Shown piece after piece: positions 155 to 17,770 of a DNA stretch of 24,000 nucleotides. The notes under the pieces were generated by a model. That model saw only the letters and a program-made list of their open reading frames with translations, was not told the DNA's origin and searched no databases. Every line of letters starts with the position of its first letter. The stretch's first letter is position 1. This stretch comes from Bacillus aerolatus (GTDB lineage: Bacteria > Bacillota > Bacilli > Bacillales > Domibacillaceae), in assembly GCF_009183655.1 (NCBI RefSeq), contig NZ_WEIO01000010.1, positions 21,416 to 45,415 on the forward strand, written 5' to 3'. Made by a program: the position numbers and the translations under genes.

Positions 155-245
155 GGAGTTTGTTCTTCTTCAGAGTTTATCGTTCTTTTTTATACCTACT
201 TTCATATAATTACGAAAGTAACATTATTTAAAGGGGAGGATATCG

Positions 246-1110: not shown

Positions 1111-1112
1111 TT

Positions 1113-2780: not shown

Positions 2781-2952
2781 GTTCTATCCCTCCATGATAT
2801 ACCTTGACAGACCTTATCAATCCTTTAGAAAAGATTACCTTTAACTGTTTAAATCGAACTGAAAAAATTGTTAGGCGTAGTAGTTTGTCGTAACAGCTTG
2901 TGCCTAGTGTGTTTAACAGTGTTGTATATTTCATATTATTTGCTCCTATCAT
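2770..2952 (-). CDS. Small hypothetical ORF (60 aa) bridging the recombinase and recJ
   Basis: Its ATG (2952-2950) overlaps the recombinase TGA in an ATGA arrangement. Its 3' end overlaps the recJ start by 11 nt, suggesting translational coupling. No recognisable motifs. Confidence 0.35.
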   Translation of the reverse strand: MIGANNMKYTTLLNTLGTSCYDKLLRLTIFSVRFKQLKVIFSKGLIRSVKVYHGGIEHDS

Positions 2953-4409
2953 GGTGTTGTTAAGACAATTTCTATATTTTTGTCACCGTGTATAATTACT
3001 TTTTCTACTAAAGTTTTGATGAGTGACTTTGCTTCTACGACAGGTAAAGTGTCAATAGCATCGATGAGAGAGGAAATTTTTCCGTTCAATTTTTCCTCTA
3101 ATCCTTCTGTATTAATCGTCGTAGTCGATTGCCTAGTTTCAGCCTCTTGCACTATCTGCTCCATTCGGGACTTTTCTTTTTGAAGATCTCCTAATTCAAT
3201 TAGTCCAGCTGTGTAGGCCTCTACCTTACGTGCATAGCGGTTTTTTGCACTCTGTATTTGTTGATTTATTACTTGTTTTTCATCATTTCTCGCTTGCTCA
3301 GCAAGCTTAAATATATAAGAGGAATTCATTGATTTTGACAATCTTAAAAGTCCTTCCTTGAACCAATCTTCGACATCACTTGCATTATAAGGCTGGCTTG
3401 TACAAGTTCCTTTATTCTTATTAGCAGAACATCGATAGCTTCGTTTTCTATTTGTTTTAGGGCCTGTCCAGCTAATCGTCATCGCTGCTCCACATCTACC
3501 GCATTTTAGAAATCCCCCTAATAAATGCGGGCTTGTTTTTGCCCGTGGTGGTACACTTGCCTGATTAATTCTTTTTTGAACCGCCTCCCATGTAGACTCA
3601 TCAATAATTAGAGGGTGAGCATTTTCTACAACAACCCAGTCTTCATCATCTTTTTCAACTTGTTTGTTGCTACTTCTATCTATACGATTCCAGACCAGAG
3701 TTCCTTTATAAACTGGATTGGTGAGTAACAATTTAATGGAACGAATAGACCATCCTCTTTTTTTCTTAGAAGGAATCCCTTCTTGGTTCAGCTTTTTCGC
3801 AATACTGTAAAACCCCAGTCCCTCATTTAGATATAGATCATACACACGTTTTACAACTTCAGCTTCTGTTTCATTGACCACAAGCTCTTTATGTATGAGG
3901 TCATATCCATAGGGGCTCTGAGTGAGCCATTTTCCATGATTTGCTGCATGAAGCATGTTTTCAAAAACACGTTCTCTTATGCGTTCTCTTTCAAACTCTG
4001 CAACTGCTCCGAGGACCTGAAGAGTTAATCGGCCAGAAGGTGTATTCGTATCAAAAGATTCACTGATAGATATAAAAGACACTTTATTTTCTTGAAAAAT
4101 ATCGATGATTTCCAGGAGATGTTTTAGCCGCCTGCTTATGCGATCAAGTTTTGTTACCAAAATCTTTGAGATAGTACCTTTTTTAACTTCTTTTAACAAA
4201 CTAATAAGTTGTGGACGATCCATATTTTTGGCAGAATATCCGTCTTCTATATAAACGTGAGGGATCTCTGTCCAGCCCATGGCTCGGCAATATGATTTAA
4301 GCCTTTGTTGTTGTTCATCAAGTGACACTCCTTCTCTTGCTTGCTCATCAGTTGATACACGACAGTAGAGAGCTATGTTTTTTGTTTCGTCAGAATACTC
4401 GTCTCTCAT
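2949..4409 (-). CDS. Large serine recombinase (LSR-1)
   Basis: Catalytic motif ALYCRVSTDEQ, the KLDRISRR motif, a recombinase domain, the zinc ribbon CGRCG...YRCS...C and a coiled-coil C-terminus are present. The track starts at 4454, but ATG 4409 has GGAGG 7 nt upstream and gives MRDEYSDETKNIALYCRVS. Confidence 0.9.
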   Translation of the reverse strand: MRDEYSDETKNIALYCRVSTDEQAREGVSLDEQQQRLKSYCRAMGWTEIPHVYIEDGYSAKNMDRPQLISLLKEVKKGTISKILVTKLDRISRRLKHLLEIIDIFQENKVSFISISESFDTNTPSGRLTLQVLGAVAEFERERIRERVFENMLHAANHGKWLTQSPYGYDLIHKELVVNETEAEVVKRVYDLYLNEGLGFYSIAKKLNQEGIPSKKKRGWSIRSIKLLLTNPVYKGTLVWNRIDRSSNKQVEKDDEDWVVVENAHPLIIDESTWEAVQKRINQASVPPRAKTSPHLLGGFLKCGRCGAAMTISWTGPKTNRKRSYRCSANKNKGTCTSQPYNASDVEDWFKEGLLRLSKSMNSSYIFKLAEQARNDEKQVINQQIQSAKNRYARKVEAYTAGLIELGDLQKEKSRMEQIVQEAETRQSTTTINTEGLEEKLNGKISSLIDAIDTLPVVEAKSLIKTLVEKVIIHGDKNIEIVLTTP

Positions 4410-4530
4410 TGTTTTTCCTCCAAGTGTTATTTGTACATGCATATGAAAATACACAGGAAATCATGAAGAAAGAGATTTGATGGATTATCACTCTTTCATG
4501 TCGCATACACATTAACCAGGGGGGGAGTGT

Positions 4531-4761
4531 ATGGACGATTTGAAGGTTAGCTATCTTTTTGACAACGCTTCTTTTGAATGCTTATCAGATTTACATGCCG
4601 AAGCTAGAGAGAAATTATCCCCTATGTTTCTTAAATGGGAGAAGAAGATAAGACACAGTTCAGCGGTCGAGACATTAAATAAAGAACTATCAGTAGATTC
4701 CACCAAGCTCCTTACAGTTTCAGTTGAAAATAAAGAAGAGAGTCAAACCTTCAAAGGTTAG
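4531..4761 (+). CDS. Hypothetical protein (76 aa)
   Basis: A G-rich RBS (GGGGGGAG) lies upstream of the ATG, and the ORF is divergent from LSR-1. No motif recognised. Confidence 0.4.
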   Translation: MDDLKVSYLFDNASFECLSDLHAEAREKLSPMFLKWEKKIRHSSAVETLNKELSVDSTKLLTVSVENKEESQTFKG

Positions 4762-4783
4762 ACTCTCCATTTTTTTGTATGGT

Positions 4784-4820
4784 ATTCATAATTATGAACA
4801 GATTGTTCATTTTTATGAAT
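4784..4820. repeat. 37-nt imperfect palindrome between convergent genes (bidirectional terminator or operator)
   Basis: ATTCATAATTATGAACA-gat-TGTTCATTTTTATGAAT has 15 of 17 arm positions complementary, with a perfect inner ATGAACA/TGTTCAT. Confidence 0.4.
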
Positions 4821-4856
4821 AGAATTTTGTTTACTGGAAATAATACTAATACAAGA

Positions 4857-5186
4857 TTAACTTTTTAGAAGTAATTCAATTCCATTTTCTAAAGTTGAAA
4901 GAAGGTATTTTACAGCGTCGGGATTTTGAGTTTGTAGTTCTTTCATTTTTTTATTTGCGTGAGTGAGCCTTATATCAAGTTCATCCATGCTCTTTTTTTC
5001 AAATGGAAAGAGGTGAAGTTCGGTTTGCAATTTTTCTAAGAGTGATAATTGTATCGTATTTGTTTTCCCTGTCTCTAAATTACTAAGATATCCAGGGGAT
5101 ACACCTAACTTTTCAGCAAAGGCATTCAAGCTTATTCCCTTATTAGTTCTGATTGTTCGGATACGTTGCCCTAAATCGTATAGCAT
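4857..5186 (-). CDS. XRE-family (SinR/cI-like) transcriptional regulator
   Basis: The HTH IRTIRTNKGISLNAFAEKLGVSPGYLSNLETGKTN is typical of the XRE family. The gene is divergent from the micro-ORF and tandem LSR operon. Confidence 0.85.
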   Translation of the reverse strand: MLYDLGQRIRTIRTNKGISLNAFAEKLGVSPGYLSNLETGKTNTIQLSLLEKLQTELHLFPFEKKSMDELDIRLTHANKKMKELQTQNPDAVKYLLSTLENGIELLLKS

Positions 5187-5329
5187 CTAATACCTCCTGT
5201 TCGTATCTATTAACGTGTATGAAAGAATCAAATTGTCCTATTACGGTTTTATTCAATAAGTTTTCAGGGAAATCCTGCTAAACGCTTTCTCTTCTTTGTA
5301 TAGTATTAAAAAAGAAAAAGGAGAAAAAA

Positions 5330-5479
5330 ATGACCAAAAAAATGATAAAGACAGTTTCAGTCAGTTATGTGCATGATCCTGAAGCAGCAGAGAAATGGTT
5401 TCAAATCTATATGGATTTATTACTAGATGAAATGAAAAAGGACAAGTTATCTATCGAGGCCTCATACAATGAAACATAG
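5330..5479 (+). CDS. 49-codon ORF upstream of the tandem recombinases (MTKKMIKTVSVSYVHDPEAAEKWFQIYMDLLLDEMKKDKLSIEASYNET)
   Basis: Not in the ORF track (under 60 aa). A strong RBS, AAAGGAG, lies 7 nt upstream of ATG 5330, and the ORF stops at TAG 5477-5479. It sits between the Xre gene and LSR-2, like a Cro/Xis-position gene. Confidence 0.45.
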   Translation: MTKKMIKTVSVSYVHDPEAAEKWFQIYMDLLLDEMKKDKLSIEASYNET

Positions 5480-5509
5480 GAGAAGGAGGGGTTACTTCTG
5501 AAAACAGTC

Positions 5510-6985
5510 ATGTATGTTCGTAATTCCATTAGTAAGGAAAAACAAAAGCTATCAATCGAAATGCAAAAGGATCATGTAAATAAATTGGCCCAGAAAGAAA
5601 ATTTGCTAATAGATGATATATATAGCGACGATGAAACATCTGCTCGAAAGACAAAGGTGAAAGAACGAACCCAAATGTCTCGTATGTTGCGAGAAATTAG
5701 GAAAGGTGAGATAAAAACAGTTTTGGTATATAGCCGCTGCCGTTTCGCAAGAAACGTTCATGACTATATGGAGATATACCGAACTTTTAAAGAACATAGT
5801 ATAAAGGTGTTTTTTGCAACAGAACATGAATTCCCCATGTTATTTACAATCGAAGGGGAATTAATAGAGCGCATAATGGCTGCATTCAATGAGCACGAAG
5901 CAGAAAATCTGGTGAAGAAGTTAAAAGATGCAAAGCTCACAAAGGCAAGACAAGGAAAGCATGCAGCTGGAAAAATATCTTTTGGATATGAACAAAGTGC
6001 CGAAGAAGATGGAGATTGGACCATTATTAAGGAGGAGGCCCAGGTTGTTCAGGATATATTCAACTTATTTACAGTTACTAGGCTTGACAGCTTGAATCAA
6101 TTCGTCGAAATGGTAAATCAACAAGGACTAACTTACAAGGATGATAAACCATGGACCTATGGAAACATTCGTAATCTGCTCAAAAATCCGATTTATAAGG
6201 GGATACGTAAGTATCAGGATATTAAGGTTCCTGTTCTACATTTGCAAATTGTTGAGGAGCAAGTATGGAAAGAAGCTCAAGTGAAACTATCGACATTTAC
6301 CCGAGATTCATTCAAGGAGGAAGAAAAAGAAAAACCGTTCTTCCTGTTAGACGGCATGATACAGTGCATGGAATGTGAAGAAGTTCTTATTTCCAATAAA
6401 GCTCAGATGCGCGGGAAGAAGATAGAAGTATATCGTTGTAAAAATCATTCAAAAATTAAGTTTGAAAAAGAAAAGATAGAAAAAGAAGTGATGCTCCAAG
6501 CGAACAATTTCTTTAATGAAATTTTGTCACCTTTCTTTAAAGAGCATCTAAAAAAGATGGCAGAAAAGGATACGAAAATTTTTAAAGATATTGGGAAAAT
6601 GATTGAAAATGTTAGGAGTAACTTAAAAGATGAGATAGGAAATAGACTAGATGTTTTACTAAATATAGACAAAGTTTCTGATGTGTCACCAAGTATGATG
6701 AAATTGTATGAAGAATTACAAGAGGTTACAAAAAGTCATGAAACATTTAAGGAAAAATGGTTTGAATCAATCGAAACACTTAAGGAATTAGAGGCGTATC
6801 ATGATAGATATGATGATGGCTCCACAGTAATTCTGCATGAAGATTTAAACGGTGAAACTGCAAGAGATTTATTACAGAATGTCGTAAAAGGCATTTATGT
6901 GCATAGCGACAAGGAAGTAAGTATTATTTTTAAACATCCTTATCTTGAAGGAGTAGGAGGCAGAGAGATTATTGGGCTTAAATAA
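5510..6985 (+). CDS. Large serine recombinase (LSR-2), first of an overlapping tandem pair
   Basis: Present are YVRNSISKEKQ (Arg-x-Ser catalytic motif), VLVYSRCRFARN, the zinc ribbon CMECE...YRCKNHS and a long K/E-rich coiled coil. GGAGG (5485-5489) is ~20 nt from ATG 5510. An in-frame CTG at 5498 would give the more canonical (M)KTVMYVRNS N-terminus. Confidence 0.85.
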   Translation: MYVRNSISKEKQKLSIEMQKDHVNKLAQKENLLIDDIYSDDETSARKTKVKERTQMSRMLREIRKGEIKTVLVYSRCRFARNVHDYMEIYRTFKEHSIKVFFATEHEFPMLFTIEGELIERIMAAFNEHEAENLVKKLKDAKLTKARQGKHAAGKISFGYEQSAEEDGDWTIIKEEAQVVQDIFNLFTVTRLDSLNQFVEMVNQQGLTYKDDKPWTYGNIRNLLKNPIYKGIRKYQDIKVPVLHLQIVEEQVWKEAQVKLSTFTRDSFKEEEKEKPFFLLDGMIQCMECEEVLISNKAQMRGKKIEVYRCKNHSKIKFEKEKIEKEVMLQANNFFNEILSPFFKEHLKKMAEKDTKIFKDIGKMIENVRSNLKDEIGNRLDVLLNIDKVSDVSPSMMKLYEELQEVTKSHETFKEKWFESIETLKELEAYHDRYDDGSTVILHEDLNGETARDLLQNVVKGIYVHSDKEVSIIFKHPYLEGVGGREIIGLK

Positions 6986-8552
6986 TGTTATTGCACCAGG
7001 GATGAAAGCAGCATTTTATGGAAGACATTCAACGGATAAACAAAATATGGATACACAATTAAGAAGTGCTTATGACTTTGCCAATCATTATCAATGTAAA
7101 ATTATAGGAGAATATTTAGATGAGGCTGTATCTTCCCGTAGAAAAGAGAGAAAGGGACTTGAAGCTTTAATAAGGGATGCAGCTGAACAGAAATTTGATT
7201 TTATTATCATTTACTCTGCTTCACGCCTTGCGCGTATTCCTAAAGAGCATGATACATTACGCACAACAATGAATATACTAGGTATTCATATTGTGGAGAG
7301 CAGTACAGAAACTCTTTATAGTTATGGAGACATAGTTTATTCCTCAATAAAGGATGCTTTAGCTAAATATGAAATGGACAAAATCAGGGCATCAACGCGA
7401 GATTCCATTAAAACATTGCTAAATATGGGCCTATGGACAGGTGGAAGAGCACCCTTCGGCTATAAATACCATCCAAAATTAAGCAGGACAGGTGAAAAGG
7501 ACAATAGTGAGGCCGTAAAAGAATTTACAAAACATCTACCTATTGAGGATTCTATGGCCATACAAAGAGGGAAGTTTGAAATAATTGATCATGAGCTTAT
7601 ACTTGCCAAGAGAGTATTCTCACTCTATAAGGATGGATATGGTTTTCAACAAATTGCTGAAAAAATGCCTGCAAAAAGTTACAGAGGTAAAAATTGGGAT
7701 AAAAATAAAGTGAAACAAATTATTATTAATCCTTTCTATTCTGGAGTTGTCGCGATTAGAAAGCGTAATCCGTCTTCTAGAAGCTCTCTAAATGATCGAG
7801 AAGATTGGCTGATGAACAAGAATTCCAATATTCAACCCATTATATCTTTTAATGAATGGGAAGAGTGTTTTCGAATCTATGAACAAAGGAAGGAAAAAAG
7901 GCTTCCTCCAAATTATTACAAGACAAGTTTTCTATTGGCGAACCTTTTATTTTGCAAAACATGTGATCAAGAGTTAAAAGGAAAAGATCAACGTTCAAAA
8001 GGATATGGTAAAAGAATATATATTTGTAACGGGTGTGGCTTTAAGGTTTCAATAGACGATGTTCATCAAGAGGTCATGAATCTTTTCTTAAAAATGCAAA
8101 CAAAGACTGCTGAGCAGCTAGTAAAGACTGTACAGGAGAAAATCTTAAAGGACTGTTACGAAATGGAAAGTAACATAGCTGTTATTAGTAATGCTCTTGA
8201 GCAGGAAAAACAAAAACTTTTCAATCTCAATGAAAAAATTGAAAAAATGTTTTCATCAAATGGAGATGAAACCATCATAAAGTTATTAAATATCGGTAAA
8301 GAAACTCTCCTTGCCTCTATTCAGGATAAGACCAGTCAAATTAGTCAGTTGGAAAAATCTATTAAGGTTTTGAAAGATATTGATGCCAATGAAGAGTTGA
8401 TTAAAGACAAGATGATGGACTTTAAACGGCTTGTTGAGCTACCAAAATCCAAGATAAGAAGAATATATTTGTACTTCATAGAAAGGATTTATGTGGAGCC
8501 ACCTGGTAGGTTGGAGTGTAAATTCCGTATTAATCTAGAAGAGGATGTATAA
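6972..8552 (+). CDS. Large serine recombinase (LSR-3), second of the tandem pair
   Basis: Present are FYGRHSTDKQ, IIYSASRLAR, the zinc ribbon CKTCD...YICNGCG and a coiled-coil C-terminus. The TTG 6972 start (AGGAGG at 6955-6960) overlaps LSR-2 by 14 nt. The alternative ATG 7002 gives MKAAFYGRHS. Confidence 0.85.
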   Translation: MGLNNVIAPGMKAAFYGRHSTDKQNMDTQLRSAYDFANHYQCKIIGEYLDEAVSSRRKERKGLEALIRDAAEQKFDFIIIYSASRLARIPKEHDTLRTTMNILGIHIVESSTETLYSYGDIVYSSIKDALAKYEMDKIRASTRDSIKTLLNMGLWTGGRAPFGYKYHPKLSRTGEKDNSEAVKEFTKHLPIEDSMAIQRGKFEIIDHELILAKRVFSLYKDGYGFQQIAEKMPAKSYRGKNWDKNKVKQIIINPFYSGVVAIRKRNPSSRSSLNDREDWLMNKNSNIQPIISFNEWEECFRIYEQRKEKRLPPNYYKTSFLLANLLFCKTCDQELKGKDQRSKGYGKRIYICNGCGFKVSIDDVHQEVMNLFLKMQTKTAEQLVKTVQEKILKDCYEMESNIAVISNALEQEKQKLFNLNEKIEKMFSSNGDETIIKLLNIGKETLLASIQDKTSQISQLEKSIKVLKDIDANEELIKDKMMDFKRLVELPKSKIRRIYLYFIERIYVEPPGRLECKFRINLEEDV

Positions 8553-8554
8553 AA

Positions 8555-8583
8555 ATCCGCGACATATGTTGTGGATTTTTATT
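8555..8583 (+). terminator. Rho-independent terminator after LSR-3
   Basis: AUCCGCGAC-auau-GUUGUGGAU forms 9 bp including two G-U pairs, followed by TTTTTATTT. Confidence 0.6.
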
Positions 8584-8720
8584 TGGCAGTTATAAGAAAA
8601 GGATAAAGTTACAAAAGTAAAAATACATAGATAAAGATACCTTAAGATTTTATTCAATTAAGTTTGTGAGTCACTAATCATAAATAGGATTGATAGAGAC
8701 TTAATTTTTATTTTGTGAAT

Positions 8721-8918
8721 TCTCGGTTTTTAGGTTATCTTTTGGAATTGTTCTCGGTTTTAAGATAGGTAATCGATCGATTACCTATCTAAAAGCCGAG
8801 AGGAAACCTTAAAATTCTAGCTGGCTCAACGGGTTTACAAGGGAAAAGCTCCTTTGGGGATTATTAGAAAATGAGCATCTCGGTTTTTTAGGTCTGATTA
8901 TTATTGTGTCTCGGTTTT
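8721..8918. repeat. Iteron-like array of four direct TCTCGGTTTT copies plus one inverted copy
   Basis: Direct copies lie at 8721-8730, 8752-8761, 8878-8887 and 8909-8918, forming two pairs each 31 nt apart. An inverted, one-mismatch copy, AAAAGCCGAGA, lies at 8791-8801. Copies 1 and 3 extend to TCTCGGTTTTT(T)AGGT. I found no convincing ORF in 8553-9243. Confidence 0.7.
8752..8801. repeat. 50-bp dyad symmetry element (perfect 28-bp core AGATAGGTAATCGATCGATTACCTATCT)
   Basis: Base-by-base pairing about the 8776/8777 centre gives 23 of 25 complementary pairs. The core 8763-8790 is perfect. The outer arms are iteron copy 2 and the inverted iteron. Confidence 0.8.
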
Positions 8919-9243
8919 TTATATAGTAAAAATAACGTGATAATGATCCGCTCGTATTATTATGTCTGTAATGTTACTAAAGTAACGTAATGACCAACAA
9001 TCCCTCTTGATATTAAATTTTCTGGATTTTATTTTCTCAAAATGTATATGAAGGACAGTGGATAGAACAGCATTAAGGTTTTAGCTTTTTATTTAGTTCT
9101 TTTAGTTAAGCAACATACCACATTTTTTCTTGCTAGTCTCAGCTTTAGCCAAAATACTGTGATGAGAGGGATGAAAAACAATGGATTATTTTTACATAAT
9201 AGGATAAAATTCAAGTATATATTGTGTTTATTTGGAGGATAAT

Positions 9244-11037
9244 ATGGAGCTAAAGTCTTCTTTACAAGAAAATATGAAGCAAGGTGATCCGTTCATTGAA
9301 AGAATGGATAAAGTCTTTGCAAGTCTAAGAGCTGACTTCGATGTTGCTTCGGCTCAATCTTCAAAGAAGAGGATTGCGGAGTTAAAAAAAATCCATGTGG
9401 ACTCAACTAAAAAGGTATCGACCTTAGCAATACAGTGCCAAGAGTCAAATGGGTTTATTAAGGGGTTAAGGGGAACTGGAAAATCCCACTTACTTTTGCT
9501 TGCAAGGGATAAAGTTAATACTGAATCCAACCATCTTTGTATTTACATTAATCTTCAGGAACATTTAAATATAGGTGGTTCAGTTGTAGTACAAGAAAGG
9601 TTTTACGTTTGGGCATTATTAAAACAGTTAAAAAGGCAATTGTTTTATATAATCGATCAAAAAGAAGACGAGAACACAACTATAACAAATATTGCAAAAA
9701 ATTTAGCTCGCTTTTTTTTGATTGATAAAGAAAAAGAAATAGAGCATAAATTAATGTCTATCTTTCAAAAACTAGAAAATTTAATTAGGATAGGTGAAGA
9801 AGAACTACATCTCTTTTCTTTTCAAAAAAAGGATGCACAACGTCTGGAAAGTAATGATGCCTGGGGTCTTGGTGGAGAGGTAAGCAAAGGGAAAACAAAA
9901 TTAAAAGCGAAGTGGAATGAGTCTAGAAAAGAAACAGATTCGACTGAAATAGGTTACCGCGTCGAAAAGATACTTGATACTGATGGACTTAAAACTTTTC
10001 TTATTGAAATTGTAAATGTACTTAACATAAATGGTATAACATTTTTTTATGACGAGTGGAGTATGCTTACCAATAAAGATCAAGAAACATTATCCGTGTT
10101 GATTAGAGCATTGAGTTCTTCACCGATATTTCATTGGATTGCATATATTCCATATAAATCGAGTCTTGGAGTTTTGGAACAACTTGCTGATATGCCGCAT
10201 AATATCGATCTGGACTTGCAATTTATTTTTGAAGAAGATAATAAAGTTTGCACCAATTATTTTAAGGAGTTTATAGATAACCGCTTGAAGTTAGTATTTG
10301 AATCTGACGTGTTTAAAGCACATGCTTTAATTAGACCAAGTGTGTTGGAAATAATGGTTAAGAGTTGCATGGGAAATACTAGAGATTTTGGAGTAATGTT
10401 AAATAAGGCTTGGAATAACTTTAGACAGGATTATTTAGTAACGCAAAAGAATAAGGTTATATCTAAGAAGCATGTTGAAAGAGCAATAAAATCTTTGGCT
10501 GAGGAAAAACAAGATAATTTAAGAGCTAAAAGCTCAAGTAAATATTCTGAACGGCTGTGGATAGAAATTGCAAAATTTATTTCGGAAAAAAAACACACTC
10601 ATTTTTGCATAGAATTATCGGATAAAAATGTTGATTTTATTAAGGAAGAAGAATTCATTGACCTCTTGTATCATAGACTGGTCCACTTAAGAAAAAAGGA
10701 TTATCCGCCTAAAGATGGCGAGAAGAATAGATTATCTATTTATGCTGCTGATGTGAGTGTCTTATTTTATCAAATATTCGAGGTGCGAAGTGAAAACAAG
10801 AAGATAAAGCTGGTGACAGATCTTTCAACTATTCACAACCGAACCAGACGATATATTTTCAACATAGAGAGATGTATTAATGAATTTAGAATGGAACAAG
10901 GTAAACAAGTTCAATGCGCTGCTTGTCGTAAGATAATAACTGAAGAGATGAAACTTGCCTGGGAAAAAGGGATTTGTATTTATTGCATGACACCTTTTTT
11001 GAATGAGGATAACACTTTAAAAGTAACATTGACATAG
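9244..11037 (+). CDS. Unassigned P-loop NTPase (AAA+/archaeal-ATPase-like) with a C-terminal CxxC-x16-CxxC zinc ribbon
   Basis: ATG 9244 lies 5 nt after GGAGG (9234-9238); the track start TTG 9232 is in frame. Motifs are Walker A GLRGTGKSHLL, Walker B-like ITFFYDEWS, a sensor-2-like GNTRDF, and CAAC-x16-CIYC at the C-terminus. Confidence 0.8.
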   Translation: MELKSSLQENMKQGDPFIERMDKVFASLRADFDVASAQSSKKRIAELKKIHVDSTKKVSTLAIQCQESNGFIKGLRGTGKSHLLLLARDKVNTESNHLCIYINLQEHLNIGGSVVVQERFYVWALLKQLKRQLFYIIDQKEDENTTITNIAKNLARFFLIDKEKEIEHKLMSIFQKLENLIRIGEEELHLFSFQKKDAQRLESNDAWGLGGEVSKGKTKLKAKWNESRKETDSTEIGYRVEKILDTDGLKTFLIEIVNVLNINGITFFYDEWSMLTNKDQETLSVLIRALSSSPIFHWIAYIPYKSSLGVLEQLADMPHNIDLDLQFIFEEDNKVCTNYFKEFIDNRLKLVFESDVFKAHALIRPSVLEIMVKSCMGNTRDFGVMLNKAWNNFRQDYLVTQKNKVISKKHVERAIKSLAEEKQDNLRAKSSSKYSERLWIEIAKFISEKKHTHFCIELSDKNVDFIKEEEFIDLLYHRLVHLRKKDYPPKDGEKNRLSIYAADVSVLFYQIFEVRSENKKIKLVTDLSTIHNRTRRYIFNIERCINEFRMEQGKQVQCAACRKIITEEMKLAWEKGICIYCMTPFLNEDNTLKVTLT

Positions 11038-11191
11038 TCCCTAAGGGTTAACTAAGAACTAATTCATTTTAATAGCATTTATTTGGTAATTATGCGACTT
11101 GAAAGCTATCTCAGTATTCATCTTTGTTTTCAATTTGAAAAATAATTTTTTGAATAAAAAACAAAGTCGGGGAACTGACATACAGCATAAT

Positions 11192-11224
11192 AAAAAAGCG
11201 CTGGTTTTTTCCGACGCTTTTTTG
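11192..11224. terminator. Probable bidirectional terminator between the convergent ATPase and restriction genes
   Basis: AGCGCTGG-tttttt-CCGACGCT forms 6 Watson-Crick pairs plus 1 wobble, flanked by an A-run and a T-run. Confidence 0.45.
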
Positions 11225-11308
11225 TTAAACAAAACATTAAAATTGAAGAAGGTGCGGATAATTCCAAGTTAAAGAATTATTCGCCTTTTTTAATCTGCCA
11301 GACCCCTA

Positions 11309-12283
11309 TTACGTTGCCCCAATACTAAAATCCATAAAATATGTTTCAGAATCGATTTTATAGACTCTAACTGATGTTCTTCCATAGTTTATTACGTCTT
11401 GGGGATCTACTCTTTCTCCTAATGGAACACTCAGCCTATTTCTGAAATATTGTCCCATAATGCTGTTGTTTTCAGTGGTATGAATGGCTTTTCGCTCTGC
11501 CTGAGCCATTTTGCAGACAAGATGCTGCCCGTCATCTGTCAGCATTGTAAATGATTGTTCAAGCGGAGGGAAAAAGTCAGGATGCTGATTATTAAATGGC
11601 GTCGGAACTTTTAAGTAAGCCTGATTGGGGTCACGGCCTTCTCTCTGTCCCCAGTTTAAGCCAGCTCTTTCTTGTATAGCAGTATCATTTCGAATCAAAA
11701 GCGGCAGGTCAACATATTCCAGGTGCTGAAGATTAGGAGTTTCCGTATCCTCACCATCTAACTCCAATTGAACGATTTCATCGGTTTGTGGTCTTCTTTG
11801 TACGGTAACATGCTGAAAATTAATATGGTTTTCCACATCAGGATCGGTGCATAAAATGGCATCAGTTACATTAAACACATCGTCCACATTTTCAAAATAG
11901 CAGGGTACCAATAATTCATGCTGATCCCTAAATCCATTCCAAGAAAAATTGGCAGAGCCTGTAAAAGTAACACTGTTATTTAATAATCTGCCGTGAGGCC
12001 AATGGTAGATTTTTGTATGTATTCCAGGACGTGATTTTTGATAACTGATGGAAACATTTTGATATTCCTCCATTATTCGAACGTATTGTTCATGATCCCA
12101 TCTTCTGATCCCGTCTTTTTTTGCCATCCCAATAACAAGCTCAATTTCTAAGTCAGGATACTTTGTTAGAATATGTGTCAAAAAAGCAGATGAAGCGTAT
12201 CCTGATAAAATTCTTAAGGTTCTGTACCCTTCTTCGTATGGTGCGTCAAAAACAATATGTTCTAAATTTGTGACATAATACAT
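11309..12283 (-). CDS. PLD-superfamily restriction endonuclease, NgoFVII/BfiI-like (N-terminal HKD nuclease, C-terminal B3-like DNA-binding domain)
   Basis: A single HKD-type motif, GIHTKIYHW...GSANFS, lies in the N-terminal half. The C-terminal half carries LNWGQREGRDPNQAYLKVP, resembling the BfiI/NgoFVII C-domain. AGGAGG lies 8 nt upstream of the ATG. The gene is divergently paired with a C5-MTase. Confidence 0.78.
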   Translation of the reverse strand: MYYVTNLEHIVFDAPYEEGYRTLRILSGYASSAFLTHILTKYPDLEIELVIGMAKKDGIRRWDHEQYVRIMEEYQNVSISYQKSRPGIHTKIYHWPHGRLLNNSVTFTGSANFSWNGFRDQHELLVPCYFENVDDVFNVTDAILCTDPDVENHINFQHVTVQRRPQTDEIVQLELDGEDTETPNLQHLEYVDLPLLIRNDTAIQERAGLNWGQREGRDPNQAYLKVPTPFNNQHPDFFPPLEQSFTMLTDDGQHLVCKMAQAERKAIHTTENNSIMGQYFRNRLSVPLGERVDPQDVINYGRTSVRVYKIDSETYFMDFSIGAT

Positions 12284-12400
12284 GAGGCATTCCTCCTATT
12301 TGAAATTATTAAATTAATAATATCAAAAATTGGAAAATCAGTCATCAACAATTTTAGAGTTGCTTTGGCATGCTGAGTGTGTTATTTTTCGACATATTCT

Positions 12401-12408
12401 TGTATAAT
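12401..12408 (+). promoter_or_regulatory. Extended -10 promoter element (TGTATAAT) for the methyltransferase
   Basis: TGnTATAAT lies 36 nt upstream of ATG 12444 and is bracketed by two GGCATGC copies (12367-12373, 12412-12418). The -35 is poor. Confidence 0.4.
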
Positions 12409-12443
12409 AGAGGCATGCAACAATAAAAATGGAGTTGTCCTAG

Positions 12444-13640
12444 ATGATATTTAAAAAAGGTGAACTGTTCTGTGGACCTGGAGGATTGTCTTTAGGAGCA
12501 AAATTAGCAGAGGCAGTAAGTAAAGATGGAGAAATTTTTAGAGTAGAGCATGAATGGGCAAATGACTATCATGAAGATACATGTGAAACATTTCGCCTGA
12601 ATATATGTCCAGATAGACCTGAATCCGTTATTTGCGGAGATGTCCGCGAATTAGATATTGAGGGCTTGCCAGAAATTGACCTTTTCTGCTTCGGTTTTCC
12701 ATGCAATGATTATAGTATTGTAGGAGAAACCAAAGGGCTTGAAGGTGATTATGGACCTCTTTATACTTACGGCATCAAAGTATTAAAGCACCATCAGCCG
12801 AAAGTTTTCATTGCTGAAAATGTAGGAGGGCTTGAAAGTGCGAACGATGGGAGGGCGTTCATTCAAATCCTAAAATCAATGGAAGAGGCGGGATATAACA
12901 TTACTCCTCACCTGTACAAATTTGAAGAATACGGAATTCCGCAGGCTCGACATCGAATTATCATTGTAGGAGTACACAAATCTCTTGGATGGAAATTTCA
13001 AGTGCCAATGCCTCCCTATAAAAATGATCCAGAGAATTGGACTTCGGCTAAAAAGGCAATTGAAAACCCTCCAATTCTAGAGAATGCTTTCAATCATGAA
13101 TTTACCAACCATGCAAAGAAAGTAGTGGAGATGCTAACCATCATCAATCCTGGAGATAATGCATGGGCGGATTATATTCCAGAAAATCTACGGCTGAATG
13201 TAAAAGGGGCAAAAATGTCCAATATATACAAGCGGCTTGATCATAAATCTCCTGCCTATACGGTAACAGGAAGCGGAGGTGGCGGGACTCACATGTATCA
13301 CTATGGTGAGCCTAGGGCCCTAACGAATCGCGAACGTGCAAGGCTTCAGACATTCCCTGACTGGTATCAATTTGTAGGAAAGAAAGAAAGTGTGCGCCGA
13401 CAGATCGGAATGGCTGTTCCTGTTGACGGAGCCAAAATCATTGTCCAAGCCATTCTGGATTCTTTTGCTGGGAACGAATATCCAACGGAGCCATCCAAGT
13501 GGGAAGAGGAGTTGGCTGAAATGCTGGAGACAGGGAAAAAAGCCAAAAAGAAAAAACGCACTAGAGGAACGAAAGTAAAAGTTGAGGCTTCTGAAGAACA
13601 AACCGAATTGGAACTGAAAACCGAAGAGCCTGTTAAATAG
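12444..13640 (+). CDS. DNA (cytosine-5)-methyltransferase
   Basis: Motifs are I FCGPGG, IV GFPCNDYS (PCN instead of PCQ), VI ENV, VIII QARHRIIIVG, then RERARLQTFPD and GMAVPV. There is an unusual ~55-aa K/E-rich C-terminal tail. Confidence 0.92.
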   Translation: MIFKKGELFCGPGGLSLGAKLAEAVSKDGEIFRVEHEWANDYHEDTCETFRLNICPDRPESVICGDVRELDIEGLPEIDLFCFGFPCNDYSIVGETKGLEGDYGPLYTYGIKVLKHHQPKVFIAENVGGLESANDGRAFIQILKSMEEAGYNITPHLYKFEEYGIPQARHRIIIVGVHKSLGWKFQVPMPPYKNDPENWTSAKKAIENPPILENAFNHEFTNHAKKVVEMLTIINPGDNAWADYIPENLRLNVKGAKMSNIYKRLDHKSPAYTVTGSGGGGTHMYHYGEPRALTNRERARLQTFPDWYQFVGKKESVRRQIGMAVPVDGAKIIVQAILDSFAGNEYPTEPSKWEEELAEMLETGKKAKKKKRTRGTKVKVEASEEQTELELKTEEPVK

Positions 13641-13664
13641 GAGACCTTGATGGTCTCTTTTTTT
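13641..13664 (+). terminator. Rho-independent terminator after the methyltransferase
   Basis: GAGACC-ttgat-GGTCTC followed by TTTTTTT. Confidence 0.6.
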
Positions 13665-13729
13665 GTCTGTTTTAGCTTCTATGGTTATGGGAATAAAAAT
13701 AGTAAAACTCTATGAAAAAGGTGACATTT

Positions 13730-14146
13730 ATGGCGGATATGAGCAAGGAAAAAAGGTCAAAGACAATGAAAGCCATAAAGTCTGTTTCAAAGCTTGAAAA
13801 CAGAGTGACGAAAGCTCTCTGGGAAAAGGGATTTCGGTTTAGGAAGAACGCAAAATTGTTCGGAAAGCCAGACATCTCCATACAAAAATATAAAATAGCC
13901 ATCTTTATCGATTCCTGCTTCTGGCATGTGTGTCCAATTCACAGCAATATACCAAAGACCAATCAGGAATACTGGATAAAAAAGCTGAAGCGAAACCAGG
14001 AGCGCGATAGAGAAGTAAGTGATTATTATAATGAAAAGGGATGGCATGTGTTGCGGATATGGGAACATGAATTAAAAGGTGATTTTCAGAGTACAATTAA
14101 TAAAATAGCCATCTTTATTAACGAACACAAAACTAAATATAAGTAA
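13730..14146 (+). CDS. vsr: Very-short-patch repair endonuclease (Vsr)
   Basis: GKPDISIQKYKIAIFIDSCFWHVCP and the N-terminal KEKRSKTMKAIKS match the Vsr core pattern. ATG 13730 has AAAGGTG 7 nt upstream (track start 13712). The gene is adjacent to a C5-MTase, as is typical. Confidence 0.88.
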   Translation: MADMSKEKRSKTMKAIKSVSKLENRVTKALWEKGFRFRKNAKLFGKPDISIQKYKIAIFIDSCFWHVCPIHSNIPKTNQEYWIKKLKRNQERDREVSDYYNEKGWHVLRIWEHELKGDFQSTINKIAIFINEHKTKYK

Positions 14147-14164
14147 ATCGCTAATAAACGAAAA

Positions 14165-14192
14165 AAGGAGCCCTCAAAAGGTGCTCCTTTTT
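14165..14192 (+). terminator. Rho-independent terminator after vsr
   Basis: AAGGAGC (14165-14171) pairs with GCTCCTT (14183-14189), followed by a T-run. Confidence 0.6.
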
Positions 14193-14353
14193 CATCTGTA
14201 AGTTTAGTGCGTCCGTTGGAAGAATAGCTGTTTCATAACTGTTAAATAAAGCGGATTATTCAGATTTATTTTGAAAATAATGTTAAAGTATTAATTGGAT
14301 ATTCTGAAAAATTGATCAATGAAGTTTTTATGGAATTACAAGGAGAGAAAGAT

Positions 14354-15331
14354 ATGGACAGAGATCATGCTAAAGTTTTTGTAAGTTATAGTTGGGATAA
14401 TCCTGATCACCAGAGTTGGATTCGATATTTCACTAATGAATTAAGAAAGAAGGGGATAAATGCAAACTGCGACCAATTCATCTTGCAGAGACAAACTAAG
14501 AATTTAAATCAAATGATGATTGAGGGAATCCGAGATAACGATTTCGTTATATATGTCTTGACGGAAAATTATAAGACTAAATCCGACCAGTTTCAGGGAG
14601 GGGTTGGATTCGAACAATTGCTTTCTCTTTCTACTCTTCGAAATAATCCAGATAAATTTATTCTTATTAAGAAAAGTGCAGCAAGTTTTGAGGATGTATT
14701 GCCATTTCATTTAGAAGACTATTCTGTGTTTGATTTTTCAAATGAGGATAAGTTTGATGAAAACATAATCAAACTAGTCTATCGTATTTACGGTATTGAC
14801 TACTATGAAGTTGCCCCTCTAGGACCTGTTCCTGATTTAGTGGCAAAGACAGAAAAATCGAGTGAGCAAGTCCAAACAAGTAATTGGTTGTCGGCAATAG
14901 AAGCATCCATTCCAATCAAAATAACTGACTTAGATAAAAATAATTTTATACGGAGTGCGTTTACTGAAATTATTGAAAAGCTAAAAGAACTATTGGACTA
15001 CGTAAAACAAAGGGATCCAGCCGTGAACTATACTATTGATCAAAGCTTAAGACAGGTAGTAGTAAAATTGTATCAAAACGGAGAATACAGATCTGGAACT
15101 AAAATATGGGTTGGAGAATTTTTTGGGAGTCGTACAGAAAGCATTTTTATATCAAATGATGTCTCATCCATTTCGAACAACTCGTACAACGAACAGATCG
15201 TTTGTAAAGTTTCAAAGGAGAATCAATTAATTCTTGAAATGAACTTTGGTGCTTTTTACTCTCAGGATGCTGATTTATTGACGCCAGAAAAGATTGCTCT
15301 TCAAATTTGGGATAGACAATTGAAGAACTAA
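14354..15331 (+). CDS. SEFIR/TIR-fold domain protein with an unassigned ~160-aa C-terminal domain (candidate single-gene NAD-depleting defence protein)
   Basis: ATG 14354 has AAGGAG 8 nt upstream (track start 14312). The N-terminal [37 protein letters not shown] matches the SEFIR/TIR_2 opening pattern (hFhSYS..D..H..Wh..h...L...Gh.h..D). A candidate catalytic Glu lies in GGVGFEQLL. The C-terminal half has no recognisable motif. Confidence 0.72.
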
Positions 15332-15390
15332 GGGGAAGGTTGCTATTTCACGGATATTGCTTATTCTGGAAAACATCTTTGCGAAAGGAT

Positions 15391-16020
15391 GGCTGGGCTT
15401 CCTACTGGCATCAGCGCATCGTCCGCGAACTGGATTTAACGTCTGGAGAAGCGATTGAATTCGCCAAGCTGAACGCAGGAGTTGTGCAGCCGTCGCGCAC
15501 ATCAATTAATCCGTATTATCTCGGCTTAAAAATGTTTGAAGACATTGAAGAACGTTATAATAATCCGACAGAAGAAATGAAACGGCACGGCGTTCAACCG
15601 GGGTCTGGCCGGGAAAAAATGTTTGAAGTCCGGGAAATTGAATCTGATATTTCGTTTTTGCGCAATTACTTAACGAAAGAGCTTGTCTCAAGGGAAGACA
15701 TGTATTTATTTCAGAAAAAAGGAAAAGATTATAAAATTACTGATAAAGAATGGACAAACGTGCGCGACCAGCTCGTCAGTATGAGGGTAAATGGCGGTTT
15801 TCCTTATTTGACTGTCAATGACAGCGATTATATGAAAGCAGGAGAGTTGTATGTGAAGCACTGGTATGAAGGAATTGAACTCGACTTAAGGTACTTGGAA
15901 AAAGTTCTTCCGCATTTATATACGCTCTGGGGGAGAACAGTTCACTTAGAGACAATTGTCGAAGACCGTGAAATTCTCTTCAGTTTCAGCGGCAATAAAA
16001 TGCAGCGCAAGTATTTATAA
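15391..16020 (+). pseudogene. spoVR: 3' segment (last ~209 codons) of the split sporulation gene spoVR
   Basis: [35 protein letters not shown]...[13 protein letters not shown]...[16 protein letters not shown]...[11 protein letters not shown]... is near-colinear with the C-terminal half of B. subtilis SpoVR (468 aa, recalled from memory). The 17 residues before G18 of the track ORF do not match, and ATG 15340 has no RBS. Confidence 0.85.
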
Positions 16021-16023
16021 CAG

Positions 16024-16060
16024 ACGGGTGTCCGGCCTTTCCCGGCCGCCCGTTTTTTTA
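16024..16060 (+). terminator. Rho-independent terminator of spoVR
   Basis: The GC-rich stem ACGGGTGTCCGG / CCGGCCGCCCGT is followed by TTTTTTT. Confidence 0.75.
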
Positions 16061-16128
16061 ATGAGTTTTGTTTGTAAATAAGAAGGGAAAAATATGAAAG
16101 GAATATTTGGCTGGGAGGAGGAAAAAGA

Positions 16129-16818
16129 ATGACGGGATTCATCTTTATGTTTCTTTATTTTTTGATCGTCACTTTCGTTATTGAGATTTCAGTCATTTTA
16201 TTTAACTTAACCGGATTAGAAACAGCTGTTTCCCGTTATCAAGTCGTTTCCATGCTAACTGGAACAGGATTTACGACAGATGAATCGCAGCTGATTATTG
16301 ATCATCCGGTCCGCCGGAGACTCAGTATGTTTCTCATTTTATTCGGCGCTTTTTCTCTCGCAGTGATTATTTCTTCCATTACAAATATTTTATCAGATGA
16401 TTTAAGGATCAAGGAATTATCCATTATTAATGTTGTCCTGCTCACTATGCTTCTTATTGGAAAAACGCCATTTATTAGAAATAAGCTGAACAAAAAATTT
16501 CATTATGAGATGGAAAAGAAACTGGAACTTTCGGAACTGCCTGTTAAAGAGGCGCTTTACTTAGGGGAAGACGATCTAGTGACGGATGTATTTATCAGCG
16601 AAGAGTCTGACTTTATTGGAAGAAAAGTGACAGATCTTATTGGCAGAGATGAAGACATTAGTGTTTTGTTTATTAAGAGGGGAAAAGTGAATATCCGAAG
16701 GCAATTGGAGAAGGAGAAAATTCAGGAAGGCGACCAGTTGTTTATTTATGGTAATAAGGAGCAAATTGTGGAGAGGTTCCTTAAGAGCAAAAATGAAAAA
16801 GAAAGCTCATCACACTGA
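16129..16818 (+). CDS. Membrane protein with a C-terminal TrkA-C (RCK_C) domain, putative ion-channel/transport regulator
   Basis: GGAGGAGG RBS. Hydrophobic N-terminal helices flank a pore-loop-like LTGTGFTT. The C-terminus GRKVTDL...ISVLFIKRG...IQEGDQLFIYG is typical of TrkA-C. Confidence 0.7.
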   Translation: MTGFIFMFLYFLIVTFVIEISVILFNLTGLETAVSRYQVVSMLTGTGFTTDESQLIIDHPVRRRLSMFLILFGAFSLAVIISSITNILSDDLRIKELSIINVVLLTMLLIGKTPFIRNKLNKKFHYEMEKKLELSELPVKEALYLGEDDLVTDVFISEESDFIGRKVTDLIGRDEDISVLFIKRGKVNIRRQLEKEKIQEGDQLFIYGNKEQIVERFLKSKNEKESSSH

Positions 16819-17631
16819 GCTCTCCTGTCGATTCTTTTCCTGCAGCCTCTCCATTACACGGCGTTTCCGGTAAAGCATCATGCCGGTTTCAGCAATGTCA
16901 TGAATAGCCGAGCGATTCGTGAAAGCCCCAAACACGATGCCGGCAATTGGAACGAGCTGCATCATTTTTTTCCAGCCAAATTGATCGCGGTACGTATAAA
17001 TAACTTCCCGCCAGCCCTGCAATTGAGAAATCATCTCCCTGCTTTGTTTCCGGCTGCTATAAAAGTTGGACAAGTCATTCAATATCACTTTTTTGCCAAC
17101 CACGTCTGACGAAGAAAACTGCAGGCATTTAATAATAAAAATGCGTTCTTCTTTTTGTTTTGGGTCGTAACCGTAGGCGATGGCAATTTCCTGAAGCGTT
17201 TTTAATGACAGTCCGAGCAGCAAAGGGATGTCCACTGCAAGGGTAAACACTCCGCCCACGCCTGTTGAAGCTCCCTGTACAGTCGCCATATTCGCGCGTG
17301 ACTTTTTCAAGGTTTCACTTATAGCGTCCATTTTTTCAAGCGGGGCGGCACCGGCGTCTTGAATAGAATGAATGGCTGTTTCGGGATTTGCTTCTTGTAT
17401 TTTCTTTAATACGCTTTTTTCCTGGATTAAATATTGTCCGCCCGTCTGAATAAAGCTGCCAATTTCATCGAGCAGCTGGCCGATCTTATTTTGAATGACT
17501 TTTGGTGTAATCCGGTCAAGCAGCTTGAATGGAAGGCGGGCGATTCTTTCCCAAATCCATAGCTGTTTTTGTTCTTGTTCCCACTTTTCAATTGCCGCGA
17601 GTTCCGTTAATAAATGTTCCTTCGTTTCCAT
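16810..17631 (-). CDS. EcsC-family protein
   Basis: GASTGVGGVFTLAVDIPLLLGLSLKTLQEIAIAYGYDP and the C-terminal PIAGIVFGAFTNRSAI resemble B. subtilis EcsC (from memory). ATG 17631 is preferred over the TTG 17652 track start, which has no RBS. The 3' end overlaps the convergent gene by 9 nt. Confidence 0.7.
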   Translation of the reverse strand: METKEHLLTELAAIEKWEQEQKQLWIWERIARLPFKLLDRITPKVIQNKIGQLLDEIGSFIQTGGQYLIQEKSVLKKIQEANPETAIHSIQDAGAAPLEKMDAISETLKKSRANMATVQGASTGVGGVFTLAVDIPLLLGLSLKTLQEIAIAYGYDPKQKEERIFIIKCLQFSSSDVVGKKVILNDLSNFYSSRKQSREMISQLQGWREVIYTYRDQFGWKKMMQLVPIAGIVFGAFTNRSAIHDIAETGMMLYRKRRVMERLQEKNRQESSV

Positions 17632-17770
17632 TTCTATCCCAACCTTTTTCAAATGTTAATACATATACGCCAGCGGTCCGTATGAAGTTTCAATAAAATG
17701 GCTGATTTATATGAGAAAGAAGATTACGCGCTTTTTATCGCCTTTCTTGCATATTTTACATGCTTATGGA

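Follow-up and report, generated by a model that had tools for sequence, protein, structure and literature searches.

A divergent ORC-CDC6-type ATPase on a spoVR island of Bacillus aerolatus as a candidate single-gene defence factor

ATPases of the ORC/Cdc6 clade take part in several multi-gene defence systems of bacteria, namely as BrxC/PglY and BrxD in BREX, as DUF499 proteins, as SspC and in the Orc/Cdc6-HerA/FtsK 'capture' systems (PMC12839542, PMC10853773). Another ATPase, Reve, for which the reported top Foldseek match is the ATPase motor module of human ORC, lowers the plating of Drexlerviridae phages to ~1e-6 (PMC13586616 and preprint). The slot between int and psu of P4 satellites is a defence hotspot (Rousset et al., PMC9122126), and protection against phages was seen for six out of eight unknown P4-hotspot loci chosen at random in a study of 2026 (PMC13586616). 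Here we analyse a gene at positions 9244-11037 of a 24,000-nucleotide stretch of the Bacillus aerolatus genome (contig NZ_WEIO01000010.1, positions 21,416 to 45,415; the whole stretch is referred to as the window), which is predicted to encode an ATPase of the ORC/Cdc6 clade. A previous sequence-only reading of the window had described the product as an orphan P-loop ATPase, either a candidate new defence gene or an initiator for the element that carries it. We find that it belongs, as judged by profile comparison, to a rare and divergent branch of a catalogued family, and that its surroundings point towards a role in defence.

Architecture and family of the window ATPase

The window ATPase is encoded on the plus strand by an open frame without stops, and its 597-residue product is 100% identical to the hypothetical protein F9802_15215 of B. 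aerolatus, for which the database entry is likewise 597 residues long; together with a GGAGG ahead of the start codon, this bears out the frame given by the sequence-only reading. In an alignment of 28 homologues sharing 30-83% identity, the motifs picked out by that reading (GLRGTGKSHLL, FFYDEWS, GNTRDF at residues 377-382 and CxxC-x16-CxxC) are all present and are invariant or nearly so, and for this reason they are not chance features. The Walker A motif or P-loop (residues 74-84, positions 9463-9495, plus strand as for all features of the protein) has invariant G74, R76, G77, G79, K80, S81 and H82, and the Walker B motif (residues 267-273, 10042-10062) has invariant F267, D270, E271, W272 and S273. 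A sensor-2-type motif in the lid helices, MGNTRDFG (residues 376-383, 10369-10392), is unchanged in the 28 sequences, as is R347. Between strand 2 and the Walker B strand lies a large helical or disordered insert (residues 118-260, 9595-10023), delimited by secondary structure and predicted local distance difference test (pLDDT) scores; it occupies a position equivalent to that of the initiator-specific (HEH/ISM) insert but is far larger and partly disordered, the disordered part in the model being residues 198-241.

The ATPase core is followed by a predicted winged helix-turn-helix (residues 433-503, 10540-10752), assigned from its topology in two models and from weak fold matches, in which T452, H453, F454, E470, L474, R478, R483 and K490 of the recognition helix and wing are invariant. 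At the C-terminus, C558-x2-C561...C578-x2-C581 (10915-10986; CxxC-x16-CxxC spanning residues 558-581) is predicted to form a zinc ribbon. Each of its four cysteines is at least 90% conserved among the 28 homologues, and the region gives weak, marginal matches to the zinc ribbons of eL43 and RpoP in searches of PDB sequences as well as weak fold matches. The frequency of the top residue is 0.71-0.72 in the ATPase core and 0.70 in the winged helix, and falls to 0.47 in residues 118-197 and 0.34 in residues 198-245 of the insert.

An AlphaFold model built on the family alignment (predicted TM-score 0.76) was compared with the PDB using Foldseek. The top match was Orc1/Cdc6 of S. solfataricus (2qby_B, E 9e-6), followed by human ORC1, TnsC, Drosophila Cdc6 and human ORC1 in the OCCM complex; ranks 1-3, 5, 6 and 18 were all Orc1/Cdc6, ORC1 or Cdc6, each with a probability of 1.00, and RuvB, CED-4, clamp loaders and RdrA were found at lower ranks. 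The TM-scores were low (0.27 query-normalised, 0.41-0.47 target-normalised, with 9-11% identity), and because of this the comparison gives the fold class alone. A separate AlphaFold model of residues 405-597 (pLDDT 88) consists of a winged helix, short helices and a zinc ribbon, and the winged helix topology a1-b1-a2-a3-b2-b3 is present in both models (residues 433-502), which supports a domain that the sequence-only reading had only suspected. The best fold matches of this C-terminal model were weak (E ~0.01) and comprised TFIIE-alpha/Tfa1, where a winged helix is followed by a zinc ribbon in the same arrangement, and then the winged helices of ScpB and CodY, with no enzyme fold among them. 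No nuclease, protease, TIR or SIR2 module was found in the 597-residue protein, as had been stated before, since the C-terminal model matches winged helix and zinc ribbon proteins only. We conclude that the product is, as modelled, an initiator-clade (ORC/Cdc6-type) AAA+ ATPase with a helical region at the N-terminus and a predicted winged helix and zinc ribbon, so that the fold searches with the full protein and with its C-terminus uphold the assignment first made from motifs.

Searches of profile libraries with the window ATPase itself gave no significant match. A Pfam scan returned sub-threshold matches to AAA_14, AAA_16 and AAA_22 and a 20-bit match to PhageMetallopep, NCBIfam and PHROGs returned no meaningful match, and 0 families of PADLOC-DB v2.0.0, whose models include BREX and Ssp components, matched at E <= 10. 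The earlier impression that the protein corresponds to no named defence ATPase therefore holds in all four libraries, including the Pfam and PADLOC scans by which it was to be checked. Likewise, PADLOC gave 0 matches at E <= 1e-5 for P0030, a member of the wider family described below.

The protein is, however, not an orphan. A word-indexed search found ~30 close clusters (Peribacillus, B. mycoides, Geobacillus, Brevibacillus, Paenibacillus and metagenomes), and an exhaustive profile search found 545 representatives of a wider family at E <= 1e-3, to which profile searches tie the close family at E 1e-10 to 1e-37. NCBI and UniRef name these relatives 'ORC-CDC6 family AAA ATPase', a few being mislabelled DnaA. 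The hidden Markov model of Pfam PF24389 'ORC-CDC6-like' (gathering score 27 bits) has no match to the window ATPase in hmmscan at E <= 10, and a 30% identical relative, P0031, reaches 19.8 bits against the cut-off of 27; more distant relatives exceed the gathering threshold. When the close-family alignment was compared with a PF24389-type alignment using hhalign, the two matched with a probability of 100% (E 5.7e-61) over 523 columns, covering residues 43-590 including the zinc ribbon and aligning the GxxRDF sensor-2 motif column by column. Both alignments have GxRGxGK[ST]H, DEWS, GxxRD[FY], the winged helix and the C-terminal CxxC-x16-CxxC in common, the wider family having GRRGTGK[ST]H and GxPRDF, and DEWS in most of its members. 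On the strength of this profile-profile match, and of the motifs shared with relatives that pass the PF24389 threshold, we place the window ATPase in the ORC-CDC6 family, as part of a divergent, Firmicutes-centred subfamily that escapes the Pfam model.

Neighbourhoods, the case for defence and its alternatives

Members of the close family are few and scattered, 11 loci having been found in 185,579 species genomes, and their context was compared at 17 distinct loci. An all-against-all BLAST of the 239 neighbouring open reading frames (ORFs) at these loci revealed no conserved partner gene. The genes found beside the homologues are nevertheless of a recognisable kind. They include an Old/GajA/AriA-like ATPase and a PIN protein (L001), dynamin-like, FtsK-like and WHH/SUKH genes (L002), an integrase fragment (L004), two type I restriction-modification systems (L005), a type IV methyl-directed restriction enzyme that ends 24 nt upstream of the homologue, with an insertion-sequence transposase also near (L006), a prophage terminase (L008), an AbiJ-kinase resembling PD-T4-6 (L010), a Tn7-like TnsB/TniB/TniQ module (L012), AbiD directly upstream (L014), and a PDC-S35 TIR gene with a serine recombinase and a relaxase fragment (L018). 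In Peribacillus (L001) the ATPase gene stands alone between two spoVR remnants, with no recombinase. The close-family gene is thus solitary, horizontally mobile cargo in variable, defence-rich neighbourhoods, with a patchy distribution; neighbourhood conservation, a check proposed by the sequence-only reading, turned out to consist of variable defence and mobile-element contexts with no recurring neighbour.

In the wider family, P4-like satellites were found in Pectobacterium and E. coli in which a homologous gene alone fills the interval from int to psu. The E. coli loci lie at tRNA-Leu and tRNA-Thr sites and were found in 9 of 5,426 complete genomes. For two of them the stretches concerned are 6654-10683 (L028) and 6789-10625 (L029), the ATPase gene of the latter overlapping the integrase stop by 4 nt, and the E. 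coli proteins are annotated merely as 'ATP-binding protein' or 'ORC-CDC6 family AAA ATPase'. WP_023140189.1 and WP_001711053.1 are homologues from the E. coli P4 hotspot. Other members of the wider family have adjacent genes: in three contigs (L019-21; L019, 1603-4144) P0030 follows a PDC-S35/CAP12-PCTIR TIR gene at a distance of 113 bp, in four contigs (L024-27; L024, 5124-8217) P0287 follows a SLFN_AlbA_2/HATPase_c_4 gene at a distance of 65 bp, and P0195 is itself followed by an HNH_2 gene (L023). It is possible that the TIR and Schlafen/AlbA_2 gene pairs are two-gene variants of the system. The TIR gene was also considered as a conserved partner of the family, and the association was judged to be facultative or coincidental, as L001-L005 have no TIR gene within 10 kb.

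In the window, the ATPase gene sits beside a restriction-modification system with Vsr and a bSEFIR gene. Taking these associations together, we propose that the gene is most likely a single-gene factor acting against phages or other mobile elements, a reading to which we give a probability of about 0.55. The suggestion that it is a candidate defence gene is strengthened by the 17 close-family loci and by the P4 int-psu hotspot; the description as an orphan does not stand, as PF24389 is already catalogued. The modelled protein has no catalytic effector domain and no fixed partner. Acting in the manner of Orc1/Cdc6 or TnsC, the ATPase in its ATP-bound form would bind DNA through the winged helix and the insert, and would assemble into oligomers either on some conserved feature that invading or replicating DNA presents or on an invader protein that is conserved. 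Once assembled, it might interfere directly with replication, helicase loading or packaging; alternatively, it might recruit host factors. The analysis itself shows an intact gene with conserved motifs, an AAA+ module that looks catalytically complete, the fold class, membership of the family by profile comparison, a defence and mobile-element context without a conserved partner, and absence from phage genomes. That the protein hydrolyses ATP, binds DNA and oligomerises is inferred, as are its defence phenotype and its target.

A more specific, tentative and rather doubtful form of this proposal is an effector-less immunity that mimics an initiator, in which the winged helix and the TFIIE-alpha-like ribbon would recognise some conserved trait of invading or replicating DNA and ATP-driven oligomerisation on DNA would stop the invader by blocking origin firing, helicase loading or packaging, with no nuclease, NADase or membrane effector involved. 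If true, this would be a mechanistic class of defence by a single protein that has not yet been described, common to the whole PF24389 family and spanning P4 hotspots, Tn7-like elements and sporulation-gene intervening elements.

Several points weigh against a role in defence. The argument for it is one of guilt by association, and four of the close-family loci (L003, L013, L015 and L016) have no recognisable defence neighbour among their annotated genes. With no effector domain in the protein, the step that would kill or block is speculative. The high conservation of the winged helix (0.70) is unusual for a fast-evolving immune sensor. No paper was found in the literature that tests any PF24389 member or a bacterial stand-alone Orc/Cdc6-like defence protein, and Reve, the sole tested analogue, is not detectably homologous by hhalign. 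Finally, the Pfam PF24389 model is itself blind to the window ATPase.

The alternative that survives best, although we hold it to be unlikely, is that the ATPase belongs to modular systems of two genes, in which it would serve as sensor or adaptor. It would sense the DNA of an invader and switch on, in trans, an effector encoded next to it that varies between loci, whether TIR, Schlafen/AlbA_2, HNH or a restriction nuclease; in the window the partner would then be either the bSEFIR/TIR protein (14312-15331) or the NgoFVII-type nuclease (11309-12283). The pairs formed by P0030, P0287 and P0195 in the wider family would fit this, as would the TIR-type genes carried on the ATPase island of both L018 and the window, and ORC/Cdc6 ATPases paired or fused with nucleases, TIR or STAND modules have been described (PMC10853773). 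The repeated pairs come, however, from near-identical contigs, and each pair may represent one element. The close family has no conserved partner, five of its loci lack a nearby TIR gene as noted above, and the E. coli P4 hotspots hold the ATPase gene alone. In the window itself a distance of 3.3 kb, taken up by an entire restriction-modification module, separates the ATPase gene from the SEFIR gene, which matches a system that stands alone.

Distinctly improbable, in our judgement, is a non-defence role in the maintenance or regulation of mobile elements, for example as a TnsC-like target selector or integration immunity factor, as a protein that organises DNA in the way of a partition system, or as one that silences transcription of the element. 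The top fold matches include TnsC (8fcu_Q), and the gene is often near recombinases. It lies downstream of a serine-recombinase pair in the window and is convergent with one such gene in L018; in P4-like elements it either starts 3 bp beyond the tyrosine integrase or overlaps it, and elsewhere it neighbours a Tn7-like module. The recombinases belong to different classes (serine, tyrosine and DDE), however, and some loci have none at all; the Tn7-like element encodes its own TniB; and the int-proximal slot of P4 is a variable cargo hotspot and not the position of a core gene (PMC9122126). A rare and patchy distribution also misfits a core function of an element.

The sequence-only reading had offered as its own alternative an initiator that binds iterons. 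In the form considered here, the ATPase would be the replication initiator or DNA-loading ATPase of an excised circular spoVR island, with a repeat and dyad region upstream of the gene as its origin, and we regard the chance of this as slighter again. The region that had been pointed to (8700-8930) is real. It contains an array at 8721-8918, found by repeat scanning and not part of the ATPase unit. Direct copies of TCTCGGTTTT are at 8721, 8752, 8878 and 8909, one further copy is inverted (8792-8801), and 8752-8801 is a palindrome of 25+25 nt; the observed count was attained in 0 of 100 shuffles. The array is 320-520 bp upstream of the ATPase gene and just downstream of the paired serine recombinases. 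Its non-random character and its position would suit an origin, as would the fold, which is that of origin-binding initiators, the three family loci on serine-recombinase or sporulation-gene islands, and the RecJ-like exonuclease on the same island as the ATPase.

These points are outweighed by the distribution of the repeats and of the gene. The TCTCGGTTTT repeats and the whole upstream region are absent at the homologues in 26 other loci, so that neither travels with the gene, and as cognate iterons the repeats were rejected, being confined to the window. Conservation of the winged helix matches that of the ATPase core in spite of unrelated flanks, which misfits the recognition of an element-specific origin. 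There is no family member in 50,697 phage records and no PHROG match, and 72,556 plasmid records yield one weak match, in a cargo region. The Peribacillus gene stands alone between spoVR remnants without a recombinase, P4 satellites already have their own primase-helicase for replication, no helicase or primase partner is linked at any locus, and many homologues have neither a recombinase nor a replication module nearby. It is the unshared repeats, the conserved winged helix, the scarcity in phages and plasmids and the Peribacillus and P4 contexts that led us to rate the initiator so low. The array could instead be a region bound by a recombinase or a regulator, or an internal att-like site of a composite island.

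A metallopeptidase, after the database name 'putative metallopeptidase' (PF18894 PhageMetallopep), is effectively refuted: the match at residues 448-504 (E 6e-4), which is also precomputed in the same faint form for several homologues, scores 20.2 bits against a curated cut-off of 23.7, the matched stretch folds as the winged helix in the models, no protease fold appeared in the fold searches, and HExxH is found in 0 of 28 family members, for which reason we consider the name spurious on homologues as well.

If the family does serve in defence, it would be a widespread single-gene system that current defence-finding databases miss, being spread over Pseudomonas, Vibrio, Serratia, E. coli P4 satellites, Bacillales and Clostridia, and it would pose the puzzle of how an effector-less, Orc1/Cdc6-like DNA-binding ATPase halts a phage. 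That question is directly testable, because close E. coli homologues lie alone in the P4 int-psu hotspot. The profile comparisons also show that the Pfam PF24389 model overlooks a whole Firmicutes subfamily of the catalogued ORC-CDC6 family. The misleading names 'metallopeptidase' and 'DnaA' on family members can also be corrected.

The transcription unit and the island in spoVR

The coding sequence (9244-11037, plus strand), which rests on the open frame, the identical database protein, the alignment, the model and the fold matches, starts at ATG 9244. A GGAGG ribosome-binding site, read directly from the sequence at 9234-9238 (plus strand), lies 5 nt before this codon, and its placement, together with the 597-residue database protein, argues for this start and against the upstream TTG at 9232. 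On the downstream side, a hairpin flanked by runs of A and U at 11188-11227 is a candidate bidirectional terminator (-23.5 kcal/mol, z = -4.9, with 0 of 200 shuffles equally stable) and sits between the ATPase gene and the convergent NgoFVII-type restriction gene. It was found by folding, a simple terminator pattern scan having failed to catch it, and it agrees with the terminator that the sequence-only reading had placed at 11192. The serine-recombinase operon upstream closes with its own palindrome at 8549-8582. Given this separate palindrome on one side and the hairpin on the other, the monocistronic unit proposed earlier is plausible; a consensus scan for a promoter upstream of the ATPase gene gave nothing above shuffled background, and none was called.

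The gene is part of a block of low GC content, 32-37% over positions 1-15000 against 40-48% beyond. In order, this block carries a RecJ-like exonuclease, a minus-strand serine recombinase, an XRE regulator, two overlapping serine recombinases and the ATPase, followed by an NgoFVII-type restriction enzyme, a C5 methyltransferase, Vsr and the bSEFIR gene. The right-hand junction of the island is placed at 15350-15390 by the Pfam SpoVR profile, by tblastn, by alignment with the Peribacillus junction and by the shift in GC. From this point spoVR homology covers codons ~250-470 only (profile match restricted to positions 260-405, tblastn match to residues 250-470), and the truncated spoVR extends to 16020. 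At the other side, exact-protein look-ups of the leftmost window genes gave no match, and the left junction in B. aerolatus falls beyond the window. Sporulation 'intervening elements' are known to target spoVR (vrin; PMC4191935).

The three large serine recombinase genes of the island are located at 2949-4454 (minus strand), 5510-6985 (plus) and 6972-8552 (plus). The minus-strand gene encodes a recombinase domain with a zinc beta-ribbon, and the other two are in tandem with a 14-nt overlap, an arrangement that recalls the ccrA/ccrB pairs of staphylococcal cassette chromosomes. Between the recombinase genes lies the XRE regulator (4857-5186, minus strand), and beside the minus-strand recombinase lies the RecJ-like single-strand exonuclease with DHH, DHHA1 and OB domains (1113-2780, minus strand; phrog_2484, E 3.6e-91). 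On the far side of the ATPase gene, 11309-14146 holds a complete type II module, made up of a PLD-type enzyme of the NgoFVII family with a B3-like DNA-binding domain (11309-12283, minus strand), a C5 cytosine methyltransferase and a Vsr very-short-patch repair endonuclease, which would counteract the deamination of 5-methylcytosine. The last gene of the block encodes a SEFIR/TIR_2 protein (14312-15331) that matches the PADLOC bSEFIR model, a stand-alone system, at E 4.5e-46; it has a ThsB-like TIR match in its C-terminal half, and the gene stops 9 nt ahead of the ORF that holds the truncated spoVR. The setting described earlier, between recombinases and a restriction-modification/SEFIR block, is therefore right as to its genes, with the correction that the SEFIR gene is a recognised bSEFIR system in its own right.

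The Peribacillus frigoritolerans locus (L001) has an intact spoVR and two more C-terminal remnants, 57% and 79% identical, the three stretches being at 3695-5104, 8816-9046 and 11800-12450. It can be seen that the remnants in the window and in L001 all start at one point, ...GAAGGCTGGGC..., and that the window and the second L001 remnant have in addition ~25 nt of element-side sequence in common; the ATPase stop codon in L001 is ~20 nt from the spoVR junction. This suggests serial insertions of related islands, which would either have split spoVR or brought in a replacement 3' end. A comparable arrangement is seen in L018, where a 30% identical homologue lies between two minus-strand fragments of sipL (PF12673) at 9433-9846 and 17267-17785. 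In the interval (9433-17785) a large serine recombinase gene is convergent with the homologue, and a PDC-S35/CAP12-PCTIR TIR gene and a relaxase fragment are present as well; its design is that of the window, a serine-recombinase island in a sporulation gene with the ATPase and a TIR-type gene. If these genes are what they seem, sporulation genes (spoVR, sipL) have a recurrent insertion point, and the islands located there are carriers of defence cargo.

Gene-free stretches of 0.7-1.8 kb are found upstream of homologues. Those in L001 (8744-10000), L002 (8388-10000) and L003 (8203-10000) measure 1.2-1.8 kb, each with long palindromes of 37-45 nt, and in L003 with a 147-nt direct repeat (8464-8610 and 9333-9479, 92% identical). 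A conserved upstream RNA or small ORF was considered and rejected, there being no ORF of >112 residues, no conservation between loci and no Rfam match in the window. As part of the gap in L001 is a spoVR remnant, the gaps may be decayed junction DNA.

Comparison with known systems

The best structural matches to the window ATPase are archaeal Orc1/Cdc6 and eukaryotic ORC1/Cdc6 (2qby, 7jpo, 7jgr and 1fnn), with which it shares the order of domains, an AAA+ base and lid followed by a C-terminal winged helix. We take its sensor-2 motif to be of the G-[DN]-x-R type found in Orc1/Cdc6. It differs in having a far larger insert between strand 2 and Walker B and an additional zinc ribbon, and in being rare bacterial accessory cargo to which no cognate origin or helicase is linked. 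The clade ATPases of the multi-gene defence systems likewise have a winged helix after the AAA+ module, and they are proposed to be DNA-bound scaffolds or scanners against invaders (PMC12839542, PMC10853773). They work, however, from conserved operons that also encode methyltransferases, PglZ, nucleases or HerA/FtsK, and BrxC, for instance, has 1200-1300 residues, whereas the window ATPase has 597, no conserved partner and no match to a PADLOC model. TnsC and TniB of Tn7-like transposons have the same initiator-clade AAA+ fold (8fcu_Q, Foldseek rank 4) and are DNA-binding, ATP-dependent oligomers on mobile elements; in comparison, the window ATPase has no match to the TniB Pfam model and carries the winged helix and zinc ribbon in addition, and TnsB/TniQ are linked to a homologue, by chance, in one locus only, which has its own TniB.

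Reve (UnknownSys7, pFD425) resembles the family in outline, being a single-gene, 586-residue P-loop NTPase without a recognisable effector from the P4 int-psu hotspot. We translated its sequence from Dataset E1 of the preprint and compared this single sequence with both family profiles using hhalign, which gave a probability of 0.6% and aligned the P-loop alone. Unlike the family, Reve has a KAP-type GEWGVGKT Walker A motif, no DEWS or GxxRDF and no zinc ribbon. Identity with the Reve system was accordingly rejected, and we conclude from these profile comparisons that Reve is an analogue of the ATPase family and probably not a relative.

The comparison that remains closest is with the PF24389 'ORC-CDC6-like' proteins themselves, which are uncharacterised bacterial proteins of ~550-600 residues. 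The close subfamily, ~20% identical to them, is distinguished by an N-terminal extension of ~20 residues and a longer, variable insert, and it is very rare and occurs mainly in Bacillales and Lachnospiraceae. The architecture is the same in both, with the N-terminal region, the motifs, a winged helix with R..HL and the ribbon, and both are found as solitary mobile cargo.

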